A DNA stretch of 64,000 nt from Candidatus Poriferisocius sp. (GTDB lineage Bacteria; Actinomycetota; Acidimicrobiia; Acidimicrobiales; Bin134), in NCBI RefSeq assembly GCF_965214065.1, contig NZ_CBDCAT010000026.1:180922-244921 (forward strand), written 5' to 3'. The position numbers were made by a program, and so were the translations under genes. Positions 2,683 to 38,271 of this stretch are shown here, one piece after another; position 1 is the stretch's first letter; each line of letters starts with the position of its first letter. A model generated the notes under the pieces. It saw nothing but the letters and a program-made list of their open reading frames with translations. It was not told the origin of the DNA and searched no databases.

Positions 2683-3629
2683 CAGTCCACCAGCGAGCGG
2701 CCGGTGAGGTGCAAGAAGACGTCTTCGAGGGTGCTGCGGCGCACGAGCACGCTCTCATGCTCGACCTCCCCGAGCAAGGCCACCAGCCGTTCGCCCTGGT
2801 CGGTATAGAGGAGCACTCGATCGGGCAGCTCCTCCACCCGCTCATAGAGCTCCTCTTTCGCTTGGGCCTCGGGGCTCTCGCCCAAGCGGCGCAACGCCTC
2901 GGCCATCACCGTCACCTGTCCATGGGTTCGCACCTCCACCACCTCGCGGGTGGAGTAGCGCTCGATCAACTGGCGGGGCGATCCCTCGGCCACGATCTTG
3001 CCCCGGTCCATCACCACCAACCGGTCGCACAGCTGTTCGGCCTCGTCCATGTAGTGGGTGGTGAGCACTTGGGTCACCCCTTGGCGCTTTAGCGTCCACA
3101 GCCGCTCCCACACCACATGGCGGGCTTGGGGGTCGAGGCCGGTGGTGGGCTCATCCAGCAGCAGCACCTCGGGCTCGCTGATCAAGGCCCGGGCGATGGT
3201 CAGTCGGCGCTTCATGCCCCCAGACAGCGGTTCCACGTGGTCGTTGCCCCGCTCGGTGAGCTGTACGAACTCCAACAATTCAGCGATTCGGGTGCGCAGC
3301 ATCGACCGGGGCAGGTCGAAGTAGCGCCCATAGACGTAAAGGTTCTCGGCCACCGACAGTTCTTCGTCGAGGTTGTCCTGCTGGGGGACCACCCCGAGGC
3401 GAGACCGGATCTTGGTGCCCTCACGGGAAGGGTCCATTCCCAGGATGCGCAGGGCGCCGCCGGTGGGGGCGGACACACAGCCGATCATTCGCATGGTGGA
3501 CGACTTGCCTGCACCGTTGGGTCCCAGAAAGCCGAACACCTCGCCCCGTTCGACCTCGAAGTCGATGCCGTCCACCGCGGTGAAGTCGCCGAATTGCTTG
3601 GTCAGCCCCCACGCAGCGATCAAAGACAC
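2682..3629 (-). CDS. ABC transporter ATP-binding protein (DrrA/NodI-like exporter ATPase)
   Basis: Walker A GPNGAGKSS, signature LSGGMKRRL and Walker B LLLDEPTTGLD are all visible. GTG start. Confidence 0.9.
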   Translation of the reverse strand: MSLIAAWGLTKQFGDFTAVDGIDFEVERGEVFGFLGPNGAGKSSTMRMIGCVSAPTGGALRILGMDPSREGTKIRSRLGVVPQQDNLDEELSVAENLYVYGRYFDLPRSMLRTRIAELLEFVQLTERGNDHVEPLSGGMKRRLTIARALISEPEVLLLDEPTTGLDPQARHVVWERLWTLKRQGVTQVLTTHYMDEAEQLCDRLVVMDRGKIVAEGSPRQLIERYSTREVVEVRTHGQVTVMAEALRRLGESPEAQAKEELYERVEELPDRVLLYTDQGERLVALLGEVEHESVLVRRSTLEDVFLHLTGRSLVD

Positions 3630-34087: not shown

Positions 34088-35540
34088 TATCCGAGGGTTC
34101 ATGAAGCATGGGCGGGAGACGCCGGTGCGCCGTCCCGTGCCAGTGAGGATCAAGGACTGGCACGAGGTCTACAACGACTTCGATGCCGAGTCGGTGCGCA
34201 CCCAAGCGTCCCGCTGCATGGACTGCGGCATCCCCTTCTGCAACAACGGATGCCCGCTGGGCAACCTGATCCCCGACTGGAACGACCTCGTCTACCGGGA
34301 CCACTGGCGGGAGGCCATTGAGCGGCTGCACGCCACCAACAACTTCCCCGAGTTCACCGGGCGGCTGTGCCCCGCGCCGTGTGAGGCGGCCTGCGTGCTA
34401 GGCATCAACGAGGACCCGGTGACCATCAAGCAGGTCGAGGTGGAGATCGTGGACCGGGCCTGGGAGGAGGGGTGGATCACCCCAGTGGTGTGCGACGACC
34501 GCACCGGCCAATCGGTGGCCGTGGTGGGGTCGGGGCCAGCTGGGTTGGCCGCTGCCCAGCAGCTCACCCGGGCGGGCCACGACGTGGTGGTGTACGAGCG
34601 GGCCGACCGCATCGGAGGGTTGCTGCGCTACGGCATCCCCGAGTTCAAGATGGAAAAGCGCCACCTCGACCTCAGACTGGCCCAGATGGAGGCCGAGGGC
34701 ACGGTGTTCAAGACGGGGGTGAATGTCGGTTTCGACATGAGCGCGGCTGAACTCACCGGAAAATACGACGCGGTGGTGCTGGCCGGCGGGGCCACCCAGT
34801 GGCGAGACCTGCCCATTCCCGGTCGGGAGCTGGAGGGCGTCTATCAGGCCATGGAGTACCTGCCCCCGGCCAATCGAGTTCAGCAGGGCGACCTGGACGA
34901 ACACCCGTTCTCGGCCGCCGGCAAGCACGTGATCATCATCGGCGGGGGCGACACCGGTGCCGACTGCCTGGGCACCGCCCACCGCCACGGAGCGGCCTCC
35001 ATCCACCAGTTCGAGATCTTGCCCCGTCCGCCCGACCAGCGGGACGACTCCACCCCGTGGCCGACCTGGCCGCTCATGCACCGGTCGTCATCAGCCCATG
35101 AGGAGGGCGGCACCCAGGTTTACGCCATCAACACCGTGGAGTTCACCGGATCGGGTGGCAAGGTGGAGGCACTGCACACGATTGACGTGCAGCAGTCCTT
35201 CGATGGCGGACGCATGAGGTTCGACCCGATCGAGGGTACCAAGCGAGAGTTCAAAACGGATCTGGTGCTATTGGCTCTTGGGTTCACCGGCCCCGAAACC
35301 GGCGGCCTGCTCGACGACCTGGGAGTAGAGATCACCGCCCGGGGAAACGTGGCCCGCGACGACAACTGGATGAGCACCGTGCCGGGCGTGTTCGTGGCGG
35401 GCGACATAGGCCGCGGCCAGAGCCTGATCGTGTGGGCCATCGCCGAAGGCCGGGCCTGTGCCGCGGCCGTGGATCAGTACCTGACCGGCGATACCCTCTT
35501 GCCCGCACCCCTGGTGCCCACCGCCCAACAGTTGCGCTGA
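34080..35540 (+). CDS. gltD: glutamate synthase small subunit (NADPH)
   Basis: [13 protein letters not shown]…CMDCGIPFC…[14 protein letters not shown]. The ATG overlaps the gltB stop (ATGGGTGA). Confidence 0.95.
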
Positions 35541-35542
35541 CT

Positions 35543-36235
35543 CTAGAAGGGCCGGGCGTCGAGGAAGTCCAGGGCGGCGTCGATGAAGTCGAAGGACTTG
35601 GGGGTGGCGAAGTGGTCTATGCCCCGCAAAACCACCAAGCGGGCGTCGGGAAGGGCGTCCACGAGCTGGTCGGCGGGGTAGGCGAAGTCCTTGTCGCCCA
35701 CCACCACAAGGGTGGGCACGGCGACATCAGCCAAGCAGCTCGTGTCGAAGGCGGTGCGGCTGGCCATCAGCGCGGCCAAGGCCTCCCGGTCGGCCTCGGG
35801 GTCGTCGGCCAGGGTGGAGAAGTGGAGTGCCTCGGGATTCTCGGGATCGGGCTCGCCGGTCACCGCGTGCAGGATCATGCGGCTGTGGCCCTCGTCTCGC
35901 TCGAACAGGTTCTTGCCCACCCCGGATACCACCAGCTTGTGAAATCGCTCGGGCGTCCGGGAGGCAATGGACAAAAGGGTGTAGGCCCCCAGCGAGAACC
36001 CGATGGCGTCGATGGGCTCGTCGGGGAAGCGGTCGATCACGTGCTGCTCGAATTCGGCGTAGCCCTCGGGATGGTGGGGCTTGGGGGCGGTGCCGTGTCC
36101 CATCAGGTCGACGCCGATCACTTCGCGGCCAGCGTCGGCCAACAGATCGATCCAGGCGTTGTCCCCCCAGGTTCGCCGGGCCGAACCGGCTAGCCCGTGC
36201 AGAAGTGCGACCGCGGGTCCGCTCACCGCGCTCAC
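35543..36235 (-). CDS. alpha/beta hydrolase
   Basis: …VALLHGLAGSARRTWG… and a GFSLGA nucleophile elbow. Start uncertain (TTG 36253, GTG 36235 or 36226). Confidence 0.75.
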   Translation of the reverse strand: MSAVSGPAVALLHGLAGSARRTWGDNAWIDLLADAGREVIGVDLMGHGTAPKPHHPEGYAEFEQHVIDRFPDEPIDAIGFSLGAYTLLSIASRTPERFHKLVVSGVGKNLFERDEGHSRMILHAVTGEPDPENPEALHFSTLADDPEADREALAALMASRTAFDTSCLADVAVPTLVVVGDKDFAYPADQLVDALPDARLVVLRGIDHFATPKSFDFIDAALDFLDARPF

Positions 36236-36281
36236 CCTACTGTTCCGGCGCAAAAGAACAGGAGACCCAGAGCAACAGGAA

Positions 36282-36342
36282 CCTCGAAAAGTAGGAGGCC
36301 CCGAGTAGCCTCCCGGCCGAAACCGGTCGACTTCTCGGGGCC
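36282..36342 (-). terminator. terminator-like hairpin plus U-rich tail at the 3' end of the candidate ncRNA
   Basis: Minus strand reads GGCCCCGAG…(GGAGGC-UACUCGGG-GCCUCC)…CUCGGGGCC, followed by UCCUACUUUUCG. Confidence 0.4.
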
Positions 36343-36562
36343 GTCCCGTTCGGTCCCGGCGCTCTGGCTGGCTTGCGCCCTCCGGCTACCCGGTCCCTAC
36401 CTCCCAGTTCCTCGCGGCACCTGGCCTCCTTCCCGGCCCTCGGCTTTCGGTGGTGCCACCGACTTCCTCGGCCCGTTCCAGCGGTCCTGCGGAACTCTGT
36501 CGAACTCTCGCCCTTTCGGGCTCCTGCTCTTTCAGCTAACTCCGCTTGTCTCTGGTAGGTGG
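36285..36562 (-). ncRNA. candidate ~280-nt structured non-coding RNA of unknown class (or an unusually long structured leader of the downstream hydrolase)
   Basis: Lies between a near-consensus promoter and a terminator-like hairpin. The minus-strand reading is purine-rich with several GNRA-closed hairpins (CCC-GAAA-GGG, GCU-GAAAG-AGC, CGGUG-GCAC-CACCG, GUUCC…GGAAC, GGCGC…GCGCC). All six frames have atypical codon usage for this genome (many A/T-ending codons). Confidence 0.5.
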
Positions 36563-36566
36563 GCAC

Positions 36567-36594
36567 ACCATAGCGCGCTATAAGACCAGGTCAA
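36567..36594 (-). promoter_or_regulatory. sigma-70/SigA-type promoter: TTGACC - 16 nt - TATGGT
   Basis: Minus strand reads TTGACCTGGTCTTATAGCGCGCTATGGT, directly downstream of a ~100-bp AT-rich tract that is exceptional for this GC-rich window. Confidence 0.5.
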
Positions 36595-36692
36595 GGGGAA
36601 AAATAAAATCCACAGGGTTTTCCACTGCTGTGAGTAGAAATCCCCAGGAAACCTAAAATTAACCACAGATACTCTGGCCTTGGATCAGAGCC

Positions 36693-37448
36693 TCAAGACC
36701 AGGTGCCGCGGGCAATGAGCACATCGCGCAACACGGTGGGGCGGTCGGTCATGATGCCGTCCACTCCCAAATCCAGCAGCCGGTGCATCTCGTCGGCATC
36801 GTCCACAGTCCACACATGCACCGCTACCTCCTGACGGTGAGCGGCATCGACAAACCGTCGATGAACCACTGGCACGCCCTTGGCCGTGGGGGGCACTTGG
36901 GCACAGGCCCCGGCCTTGATGCGTAGGGGCAGACCAGCGGCCGCGGCTTGGAGCCGCCCGACCTCCTTTGGGCTGAGACCGGTACACAGCCGTGGCCCGC
37001 CCAGGCGCCGGGCGGTGGCCAGTCGGCGCCCCGAGAATGATCCGACGCACACCCGGTCGATGGCGTTGGCCCGATGCAGGGTGTCGATAAGCGGTTCAGT
37101 GGCCTGGTCGTGTTTGGGGTCGACCGCGATCTTGACATCGGGCCAGGCCTCCAGCAGTTCCTCGAAGCGGGGAATGGTTTGTTCTCCGCCCACTCGCACG
37201 GTCTCCAAGTCTCGCCAGGCCAATTCGGCGATGGCCTCCGGACGACCACTGAGCCGTTGCAAGCCCTCGTCGTGGAATGCCACCAGTACCCCGTCGCGGG
37301 TGGCGTGCACATCAGTCTCCAGGTAGCGATAGCCAAGGTCGACGGCGGCTGAGAACGCGGCCATGGTGTTCTCCGGCCCCTCCGCGGCCCCGCCCCGGTG
37401 GGCGATGGGTATCGGCCCCTCGTGATCTAAGAACTGCCAAGCGGACAC
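36693..37448 (-). CDS. glycerophosphodiester phosphodiesterase family protein
   Basis: …IAHRGGAAEGPENTMAAFSAAVDLGYRYLETDVHATRDGVLVAFHD… is the GDPD signature. GTG start inferred at 37448. Confidence 0.8.
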   Translation of the reverse strand: MSAWQFLDHEGPIPIAHRGGAAEGPENTMAAFSAAVDLGYRYLETDVHATRDGVLVAFHDEGLQRLSGRPEAIAELAWRDLETVRVGGEQTIPRFEELLEAWPDVKIAVDPKHDQATEPLIDTLHRANAIDRVCVGSFSGRRLATARRLGGPRLCTGLSPKEVGRLQAAAAGLPLRIKAGACAQVPPTAKGVPVVHRRFVDAAHRQEVAVHVWTVDDADEMHRLLDLGVDGIMTDRPTVLRDVLIARGTWS

Positions 37449-37485
37449 CAGCGAAAGCGTAGTTGCCGGGATAGATTCACTGTCT

Positions 37486-38271
37486 GTGGGTTGGGAGCCG
37501 GCTGAGAGATTCAGGAATCTGCTTGAGCAGGATGAATTCGCCCTCCATGAGGGGGCTCTGTGCATTGCCGCCCACGGCTGTCCGGATATGGACTTCGACG
37601 CTGAGCTAGACCGACTGGACTCTCTCGCCGATTCTTGCGACCACTCCAGTCGGAGCCAAATGCTGCACTCGCTGTTCAGCGAGCTGGGGTTCCACGGCAA
37701 CCGGTCGGACTATTACGACCCCCGCAACTCGTTTCTCAACGAGGTCATGCGCCGGCGCACCGGGATCCCCATCAGCCTCGCCGTGCTGACCATCACGGTA
37801 GGGGCCCGCATGGGCTATGAGTTCGAGGGAATCGGACTGCCTGGCCACTTCTTGATCCGGGACCGGAACGAGCCCGACACCTATATCGACGTGTTCGCCG
37901 GGGGCGCGTTGCTCAATGCCCAGGGCTGCGAAGAACTCTTCCACCAGATCACCGGAGGGCAGAAGGGATTTCACCCTGCATTCTTGGCCCCGGTAGACGA
38001 TTCGTCGATCATGGAGCGGATACTGGGGAATCTTCGGGCCATCTACGCCCAGCGCCGGGACTACGCCAATCTGGAGTGGGTACTGGAGTTGCGGACGATT
38101 TGCCCCTCGGCCACTGCTAAGGAGGCCAAACAGCTTGGTCTGATCAGCATGGAGCGGGGACGGTTCGAAGTAGCGGCCCGCCGGTTCGAGGCACTAGCCG
38201 AGGCCGCGGAGAATGACGATGAGGAGCAGCTTCGGCAGTTGGCCGTCCGCGCCCGGGCCCGCATGAACTAG
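37486..38271 (+). CDS. SirB1-like / transglutaminase-like plus TPR protein
   Basis: Architecture and motifs (…DYYDPRNSFLNEVMRRRTGIPISLAVL…GLPGHFLIR…) are typical of the UPF0162/SirB1 family. Confidence 0.7.
   Translation: MGWEPAERFRNLLEQDEFALHEGALCIAAHGCPDMDFDAELDRLDSLADSCDHSSRSQMLHSLFSELGFHGNRSDYYDPRNSFLNEVMRRRTGIPISLAVLTITVGARMGYEFEGIGLPGHFLIRDRNEPDTYIDVFAGGALLNAQGCEELFHQITGGQKGFHPAFLAPVDDSSIMERILGNLRAIYAQRRDYANLEWVLELRTICPSATAKEAKQLGLISMERGRFEVAARRFEALAEAAENDDEEQLRQLAVRARARMN

Follow-up and report, generated by a model that had tools for sequence, protein, structure and literature searches.

The 64-kb window analyzed here, meaning the whole 64,000-nucleotide stretch of DNA whose numbering is used throughout, comes from the genome of a sponge-symbiont member of the Acidimicrobiia (Candidatus Poriferisocius, Sva0996 group) and carries a gene of about 275 nt for a small RNA on the minus strand at 36286..36560. 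The gene lies between a GDPD gene (PF03009) and an alpha/beta-hydrolase gene (PF00561/PF12697), at the position and on the strand given by a first-pass annotation made from the letters of the DNA alone. Read along the minus strand, the stop codon of the GDPD gene (TGA, 36695-36693) is followed by an AT-rich stretch and a promoter, then by a segment rich in purines and GC, and finally by a long hairpin with a short U tract that ends at 36286. The hydrolase starts on the same strand about 50-60 nt past the end of the RNA (GTG at ~36235 or 36226). The limits of the RNA gene rest on depth in RNA runs, on adapter junctions and on conservation in 33 loci (69-97% identity). The product is an abundant, stable and structured non-coding RNA with its own SigA-type promoter and a conserved 3'-hairpin end, which is not translated and does not regulate the downstream gene in cis. 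Conservation, covariation and RNA-seq all agree with the stand-alone structured RNA of ~280 nt, with a promoter and terminator of its own, that was proposed at first, and we regard the small RNA gene as almost certainly real and independent.

Expression was read from Logan contigs of metatranscriptome runs, mapped on 35400-37800, as contig word depth, which is only a rough measure of expression, with a contrast of ~10^5 that is nonetheless unambiguous. The sequence of the RNA gene is present in many small sponge metatranscriptome runs. In three sponge RNA runs, a word depth of 10^4 to 4x10^5 is confined to 36305-36560 and is zero in both neighboring genes. Adapter junctions that represent 5' fragment ends occur at 36560 and 36552 and fit a transcription start at A 36560, 6-7 nt past the -10 element. 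Junctions on the 3' side occur at 36335, 36333 and 36308. Depth drops at 36335, is more than 100-fold lower over the 3' hairpin (36290-36335) than over the body of the RNA, and is zero downstream of the hairpin. The low depth over the hairpin may reflect processing that removes it from the mature RNA or a block to reverse transcription.

No DNA-type run nears 10^4-10^5, which identifies the peak in the RNA runs as transcription and not copy number. Three of the four DNA-type runs are roughly flat at ~6-30 wherever the stretch is covered. In two of the four (X2 and X9) the depth over the RNA region equals that of the flanks, indicating that the RNA gene is single-copy there, and in X4 a contig is 5-10-fold higher over the RNA region, an excess attributed to strains that share the more conserved sequence. 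A longer marine form of the RNA (group 2 below) reaches a word depth of 5.7x10^5 with silent flanks in marine, sediment and unlabeled metatranscriptomes. In sponge and marine metatranscriptomes, its contig word depth puts the abundance of the RNA at about 100,000 times that of the neighboring genes.

The sigma-70/SigA-type promoter (36567..36594, minus strand), identified by a motif scan and a 34-sequence alignment, consists of TTGACC (36594-36589) and TATGGT (36572-36567) separated by 16 nt. It is the only promoter-like site in the surrounding 2 kb, where 0.2 would be expected, and its -35 CTTGAC and -10 TA.GGT are unchanged across the alignment. The first-pass annotation had ranked it as the best promoter in the window; the site itself was found again but shares its rank, as five sites in the 64 kb reach 9/12. 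The AT-rich region reported upstream of the promoter is also there, with a GC content of 0.43-0.50.

Upstream of the -35, conservation in the alignment delimits four direct repeats in one orientation (36606..36668, minus strand) with the consensus CWGKGGAWWW: CTGTGGTTAA (36668-36659), CTGGGGATTT (36647-36638), CAGTGGAAAA (36627-36618) and CTGTGGATTT (36615-36606). Across the 34 aligned sequences all four boxes are invariant, whereas the intervening spacers vary. The diverged loci L034, L035, L088, L167, L170 and L179 (labels of this kind denote retrieved loci) again have the three boxes nearest the promoter, with unchanged spacing; as in all lineages, these boxes stand ~20 and 12 bp apart and 21 bp from the -35. 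The arrays lie at 726-801 in L034, 175-249 in L035, 3331-3410 in L167, 2860-2900 in L170 and 2295-2370 in L179, with a further one in L088. The boxes resemble the DnaA box TGTGGATAA, several of them within one or two mismatches (AGTGGATAA in L167/L170, TGTGGTTAA in the window), and form the densest cluster in the window of sites with at most two mismatches to TGTGGATAA. They are presumed to be transcription-factor sites, with DnaA or another regulator as the candidate binder. Four invariant repeats would tie synthesis of the RNA to a regulator of growth or replication status. If confirmed, such DnaA-box-like repeats would be an unusual control logic for a small RNA; a literature search for small RNAs with DnaA-box promoters returned nothing relevant.

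A search with the hydrolase protein yielded 44 loci from species-representative genomes. The close loci are all from metagenome-assembled Acidimicrobiia from sponges (Candidatus Poriferisocius, Sva0996 marine group), and the RNA gene and its promoter are kept in 33 of the 34 close relatives. The conserved block runs from ~30 nt past the GDPD stop through the U tract and includes the promoter. Among homologues the RNA part measures 279, 280, 281, 289, 249, 252, 234, 235, 258, 262 or 325 nt, and these lengths differ by single-base indels and by changes to one whole arm (36541-36492), which may be lost, shortened or expanded. Single-base indels combined with the gain and loss of a whole arm exclude coding constraint and are typical of a structured RNA.

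Two further marine lineages carry diverged forms of 232-507 nt, in every case immediately behind the GDPD gene. The close Poriferisocius relatives are referred to here as group 1 and the two further lineages as groups 2 and 3. L034 and L035 came from the hydrolase loci, L088 from a metagenome pattern scan, and the other members from a GDPD homologue search and contig look-ups. Among the matches listed by the pattern scan (CGGTGGCASCAYCGA...GGGAA), most were chance matches in coding DNA and L088 was the only true member. Group 2 is marine (L034, L035, L088 and L179), with RNAs of ~500 nt and covariance-model scores of 29-46 bits. In the middle of these RNAs, GC hairpins capped by UUCG loops and joined by purine linkers such as GGAACGG form a variable array (970-1260 in L034, 420-700 in L035, 2540-2830 in L179, also in L088), and metatranscriptome variants of this form skip 54, 188 or 290 nt of the array. 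Group 3 consists of low-GC sponge symbionts with RNAs of 232-254 nt, scoring 151.7 bits in L170 and 83-88 bits in L167/L168. Common to all three lineages are the promoter architecture, helix P1 followed by GACAA, a GGUGGCA(C/G)CA hairpin, a GGACCG(A/C)ACGGGA junction and the 3' hairpin.

The gene is missing at the syntenic site in some genomes. In L027, a close relative, the GDPD stop is ~50 nt from the hydrolase start (2955-3010), and in one lineage (L165/L166) the gap between GDPD and hydrolase is 43 nt (3259-3302); in each case the entire ~400-bp unit of promoter plus RNA is missing, so that the gene is either polymorphic or relocated in some genomes. The syntenic site is also without the RNA in the distant hydrolase or GDPD relatives L036-L038, L169 and L171-L178, and among the GDPD relatives at ~60% identity that were examined, it lacks the RNA in all but L179, which has a group-2 RNA. 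No extra copy of the RNA was found in the window or in the retrieved loci.

The structure is supported by both folding energy and comparative evidence. A 301-nt segment folds at -146.6 kcal/mol, against -125.3±5.2 kcal/mol for shuffled sequences (z = -4.1; 0 of 100 shuffles as stable). The consensus structure was obtained with RNAalifold on the alignment of relatives, from which a covariance model was built, and pairs were counted on the covariance-model alignment of 34 sequences, three of them from the low-GC lineage. Standard pairs fill 97.8% of the cells, compared with 96.1±0.1% in shuffles and 31-52% in slid controls. Fifteen pairs have changed on both sides, compared with 3.5±1.4 in shuffles (0 of 500 reach 15) and 3-7 in slid controls. 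Because the alignment was fitted to the model, these counts are biased in favor of the structure; even so, clear covariation in P1 and the slid controls argue that the rod described next is real.

The 5' part of the RNA (36396..36562, minus strand, as for all elements below) is predicted from RNAalifold and the pair counts to form a rod in which short stacked helices alternate with internal loops rich in purines (GGAA/GAA, GA/GAG). Helix P1, pairing 36562-36552 with 36407-36396, closes the rod, which continues with GCGG/CCGC (36545-36542 with 36417-36414). P1 covaries between the window (CCUACCAG/CUGGGAGG) and L170 (CUGAUCAG/CUGAUUGG), with C-G to U-A and G-U changes. Within the rod, a variable arm (36492..36541) carries two hairpins with GNRA-type caps, GCUGAAAGAGC and CCCGAAAGGG. 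L024, L025, L028, L029 and L170 lack this arm, L018 and L020 have a shortened one, and in L040 it is expanded to ~95 nt. The apical hairpin (CGGUGGCA), UCGGUG-GCAC-CACCGA at 36447..36462, is invariant in group 1 and found in all three lineages; nowhere in the family is sequence better conserved than in its GGUGGCA(C/G)CA core.

Two short hairpins (36370..36393) follow the rod, CCGG-GUAG-CCGG at 36393-36382 and GGC-GCAA-GCC at 36379-36370, both with tetraloops of the GNRA type and with compensatory changes; the second reads GGGC/GCUC in L167 and GUGAG/CUCAC in L170. An alternative enclosing helix is possible near 36370-36393 (CCGGAG/CUCCGG in some members, UUCGGU/ACCGAG in L170), and the region from P1 to the 3' hairpin is plastic, with other helices possible. 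A mostly unpaired linker (36348..36369) ends in the junction GGACCG(A/C)ACGGGA, which also occurs in L034, L035, L088, L179, L167 and L170. The 3' hairpin (36293..36347) has 22 bp, a tandem G.A/A.G internal loop and a UUCG-type loop. Eleven of its 22 pairs are invariant across groups 1 and 3, even in low-GC lineages (GC 0.55-0.56), and this invariance at 55% GC points to sequence-specific recognition beyond termination alone. The hairpin thus serves as the intrinsic terminator stem and is probably a recognition element as well.

The comparative structure retains part of the fold first suggested for the RNA. The segment is indeed purine-rich (G 0.40, A 0.23, U 0.10), and the hairpins CCCGAAAGGG, GCUGAAAGAGC and CGGUGGCACCACCG and the 3' hairpin were kept. 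The local hairpins GUUCC/GGAAC, GGCC-GGGAAGGA-GGCC and GGCGC/GCGCC gave way to long-range pairings in the rod that are backed by covariation. The RNA had been described as ending in a hairpin with a U-rich tail; the 22-bp hairpin (36347-36293) is real, but the tail is a short UUUU within 36292-36286, and a simple terminator scan did not flag the hairpin because the U tract has only four U. As a separate observation, GGGAGGUAGGG (36396-36406) can pair with the 5' end in P1 or, more weakly and by way of G-U pairs, with the 3' tail CCUCCUACUUU (36286-36297). The latter pairing is a possible alternative conformation.

The RNA matches no known family. Rfam 15 gave no match at gathering score across the 64-kb window, and at E<=10, for 36100-36800 and the diverged relatives L034, L035, L040 and L029, it gave only chance matches (F6 on the terminator hairpin, at 22.7 bits where the gathering score is 46; mir-615; CC2171). 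These searches covered 6S RNA, the raiA motif, signal recognition particle (SRP) RNA, RNase P RNA, transfer-messenger RNA (tmRNA) and riboswitches. Searches of the literature on this RNA and on Poriferisocius returned nothing relevant. The first reading had left the class unknown; the RNA belongs to a new, undescribed family. Membership in the raiA or 6S families, which had been floated on grounds of size and expression signals, is not borne out: Rfam yields no match at E<=10, and a central bubble of the 6S type is lacking.

A protein-coding gene was considered and rejected on account of indels that are not multiples of three and of the lack of a Pfam match for the 109-aa open reading frame (ORF) at 36237-36566, which is present, as first listed, and which the lengths of the homologues break in any frame. 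Automatic gene callers put spurious ORFs on the RNA gene, and public gene calls and mechanical ORF lists contain several of them (L179 2315-2845, minus strand, 176 aa; window 36237-36566, minus strand, 109 aa; window 36197-36583, plus strand, 128 aa), none with a Pfam match. Upstream, the longest GDPD ORF in the window (36693-37700, minus strand, 335 aa, TTG start) overlaps a divergent transglutaminase-like gene that starts at 37486. With GDPD homologues of 223-271 aa and a Pfam match from residue 101, the true GDPD start is probably near 37450.

The apical-hairpin motif has 0 matches in IMG/VR. An 18-mer from the 3' hairpin, CCCCGAGAAGTYGACCGG, occurs in 42 IMG/VR contigs (L180-L221); nearly all the matches fall in one conserved protein-coding gene of a family of ~30-kb phage contigs, and the rest are isolated. 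A phage link of the RNA was rejected, since none of these viral matches has the hairpin partner and they are coincidental.

What the RNA does can be approached by asking what it binds. We lean, tentatively, toward a trans-acting RNA with RNA polymerase as its partner, a counterpart in marine Acidimicrobiia of 6S RNA, Ms1 and CoRP. The size range (232-507 nt), the abundance and the lineage-specific sequence match the pattern of CoRP-type RNAs and count for such a partner. The RNA would act in trans by binding protein, with RNA polymerase bound and buffered in slow-growing or stationary cells, as is the case with 6S, Ms1 and CoRP. Contact with protein would be made by the purine-looped rod and by two invariant hairpins, the GGUGGCA hairpin and the 3' hairpin.

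A possible, if more doubtful, reading is that this stable and abundant RNA binds or scaffolds a partner other than polymerase, whether as a protein sponge with repeated purine motifs, as a ribosome- or 30S-associated RNA, or as a self-assembling structural RNA. The rod-like shape with many G.A-rich internal loops would suit such a role, as would the missing 6S-type bubble; the variable hairpin array of the large forms, with its skips of 54, 188 and 290 nt, recalls modular sponge RNAs, and a GGAGG-like segment is kept in the internal loop of the 3' hairpin. No candidate partner gene is linked to the locus, however; the GGA motifs lie outside hairpin loops, unlike those of CsrB-type RNAs, and the Shine-Dalgarno-like AAGGAGG of the window is not conserved. 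Hfq, CsrA and ProQ are, to our knowledge, generally absent from Actinobacteria, which also counts against a sponge or scaffold of this kind.

A related alternative, which we consider unlikely, is that the RNA does not bind polymerase but serves as the RNA component or the scaffold of a very abundant, undescribed ribonucleoprotein specific to marine and sponge-associated Acidimicrobiia. In such a particle, the GGUGGCA and 3' hairpins would be the protein-recognition sites, the middle would be an expandable array that accounts for the 232-507-nt range, and the DnaA-like boxes would couple synthesis to replication.

It is improbable that the RNA regulates mRNAs in trans by base pairing. The stand-alone gene with its regulated-looking promoter and the conserved unpaired segments AGAGACAA and GGACCGAACGGGA would be in keeping with a base-pairing small RNA, but the RNA is unusually long for one, is nearly fully structured and varies in length from 232 to 507 nt, and an excess of ~10^5-fold over neighboring mRNAs is far beyond stoichiometric need. 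Readings other than polymerase, another protein or ribonucleoprotein, and base pairing are, taken together, also improbable. Among them, a small selfish or mobile cassette in which promoter, RNA and terminator are gained and lost as a unit is very unlikely. The clean presence or absence of the ~400-bp unit, with the gaps of ~50 nt in L027 and 43 nt in L165/L166, speaks for a cassette. Against it stand the constant position behind GDPD across three diverged lineages, DNA depth equal to the flanks in X2 and X9 (several-fold higher in X4), the lack of a further copy in the window or loci, and the lack of any viral contig match that reflects the RNA.

A cis-acting leader, riboswitch or attenuator of the hydrolase, which the first-pass annotation had kept as its alternative, is disfavored and scarcely credible. 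The hydrolase does lie on the same strand, with its start ~50-60 nt beyond the end of the 3' hairpin, but what lies downstream differs from lineage to lineage: the window has the hydrolase, L034 a 444-aa ORF and L179 an HhH-GPD gene, and in L170, which has no hydrolase, the next gene is a convergent gltD. RNA depth in the hydrolase gene is zero, the terminator hairpin is the most conserved part with no evident alternative antiterminator, and no Rfam riboswitch matches. Least credible of all, and also disfavored, is a housekeeping RNA (RNase P RNA, SRP RNA or tmRNA) that has diverged strongly, or a small-protein gene: the abundance is comparable to that of housekeeping RNAs and GAGGAAGUCGG faintly recalls the RNase P sequence GAGGAAAGUCCGG, but there is no Rfam match at E<=10 for the RNA and four diverged relatives, ARAGORN finds no tmRNA in the window, some relatives lack the gene, and indels shift any frame of an ORF that has no Pfam match.

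The new family is a concrete candidate for the missing polymerase-associated RNA of the Acidimicrobiia. Our searches turned up no published polymerase-associated RNA of high abundance in this class, nor any report of 6S or Ms1 in it. Should the polymerase hypothesis be true, the RNA would add a further class beside 6S, Ms1 and CoRP. The hosts are uncultured bacteria that are dominant in the microbiomes of some sponges and occur commonly in seawater and marine sediments. An excess of ~10^5-fold over its neighbors, as read from contig word depth in the runs examined, means that the RNA distorts expression analyses if it is left unannotated, and it could serve as an activity marker for these Acidimicrobiia.

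The case for RNA polymerase as the partner rests on a comparison with the RNAs known to bind it. Like 6S RNA (RF00013), the window RNA is an abundant, stable small RNA on the ~200-nt scale that folds like a rod and has a promoter of its own. 6S is reported to be missing from Actinobacteria, and both Ms1 and 6S reach levels like those of essential RNAs (PMC9130861). Ms1 binds the polymerase core in Mycobacterium and Streptomyces, and like the window RNA it is actinobacterial, ~230-300 nt long, very abundant and stand-alone, with extra terminal hairpins (PMC9130861). At ~275 nt, and with a word depth to 3x10^5 against 0 in flanking genes, the window RNA compares with Ms1 in size and abundance. 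The name Acidimicrobiia was not found in the Ms1 survey or its supplement (PMC9130861). CoRP is an abundant, genus-specific RNA of 516 nt that binds RNA polymerase in Corynebacterium and was found by RNA immunoprecipitation sequencing (RIP-seq); its authors propose one abundant polymerase-binding RNA per bacterial species (PMC11077062). CoRP and the window RNA are both actinobacterial, abundant, lineage-specific, long and highly structured, and both lie outside Rfam-style homology searches.

Several features weigh against a polymerase partner. Unlike that of 6S RNA, the 5' end of the window RNA pairs internally (nt 160-171 of 281) and not with the 3' end; its internal loops are at most ~8 nt, leaving no open-promoter-like bubble, and its 3' third consists of separate hairpins. 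The 6S covariance model gave no match at E<=10 for the locus and L034, L035, L040 and L029. The central bubble of Ms1 is likewise not predicted for the window RNA, whose neighbors are GDPD and alpha/beta-hydrolase genes and not the HAD-IB hydrolase and oxidoreductase genes that flank Ms1 (PMC9130861). Similarity to Streptomyces coelicolor Ms1 was also negative (best E of 0.2 with blastn, under the published parameters and in a 7-sequence database; no nhmmer match), so that neither synteny nor sequence supports the Ms1-type membership first suggested. CoRP sits between tRNA genes, whereas ARAGORN finds no tRNA or tmRNA gene in the 64-kb window, and polymerase binding was demonstrated for CoRP and is only a candidate property of the window RNA. 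The absence of the gene from the syntenic site in L027 and L165/L166 implies that it is dispensable or relocated in those genomes. Contig word depth, from which the abundance was read, is a rough measure of expression, and polymerase is a candidate partner proposed by analogy.

One detail of sequence hints at a link between the family and CoRP. Nucleotides 386-400 of Corynebacterium glutamicum CoRP carry AAGCGGUGGCAGCA, which holds a 12-14-nt word in common with the family's apical hairpin. AAGCGGUGGCAGCA is identical to the apical hairpin in L035 (341-354) and L179 and nearly so in L034 (~898-911); the counterpart in the window is at 36464-36445. A local alignment of CoRP with L034 pairs 29 of 38 positions (z = 4.7; 0 of 300 shuffles), the corresponding figure for L035 is 3 of 300 shuffles, and a profile of the apical-hairpin module is matched by 2 of 3000 shuffled CoRP sequences. 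Against these figures, the comparison of CoRP with the window sequence is not significant (z = 0.9), and the match is a word of 12-16 nt noticed by eye, with nothing else alignable. The shared word (the GCGGUGGCAGCA hairpin) is suggestive only, a lead and not evidence of homology.

Other known systems resemble the RNA in more limited ways. Like the raiA motif RNA, it is a structured RNA of about 200 nt found in Actinobacteria, but it lacks a covariance-model match, a nearby raiA gene and a constant family of downstream genes. Sponges of the CsrB/RsmZ type differ in their loops; those of the window RNA are GAAA, GAAAG, GCAC, GUAG/GGAA, GCAA and UUCG, and its GGA motifs are mostly in internal loops and linkers. 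IMES-type RNAs are exceptionally abundant in marine metatranscriptomes, of unknown function and defined by comparative structure. The window RNA, too, is very abundant in marine metatranscriptomes and known by comparative structure, and it differs from the IMES-type RNAs in matching no IMES family in Rfam and in having known hosts, a known locus and a promoter.

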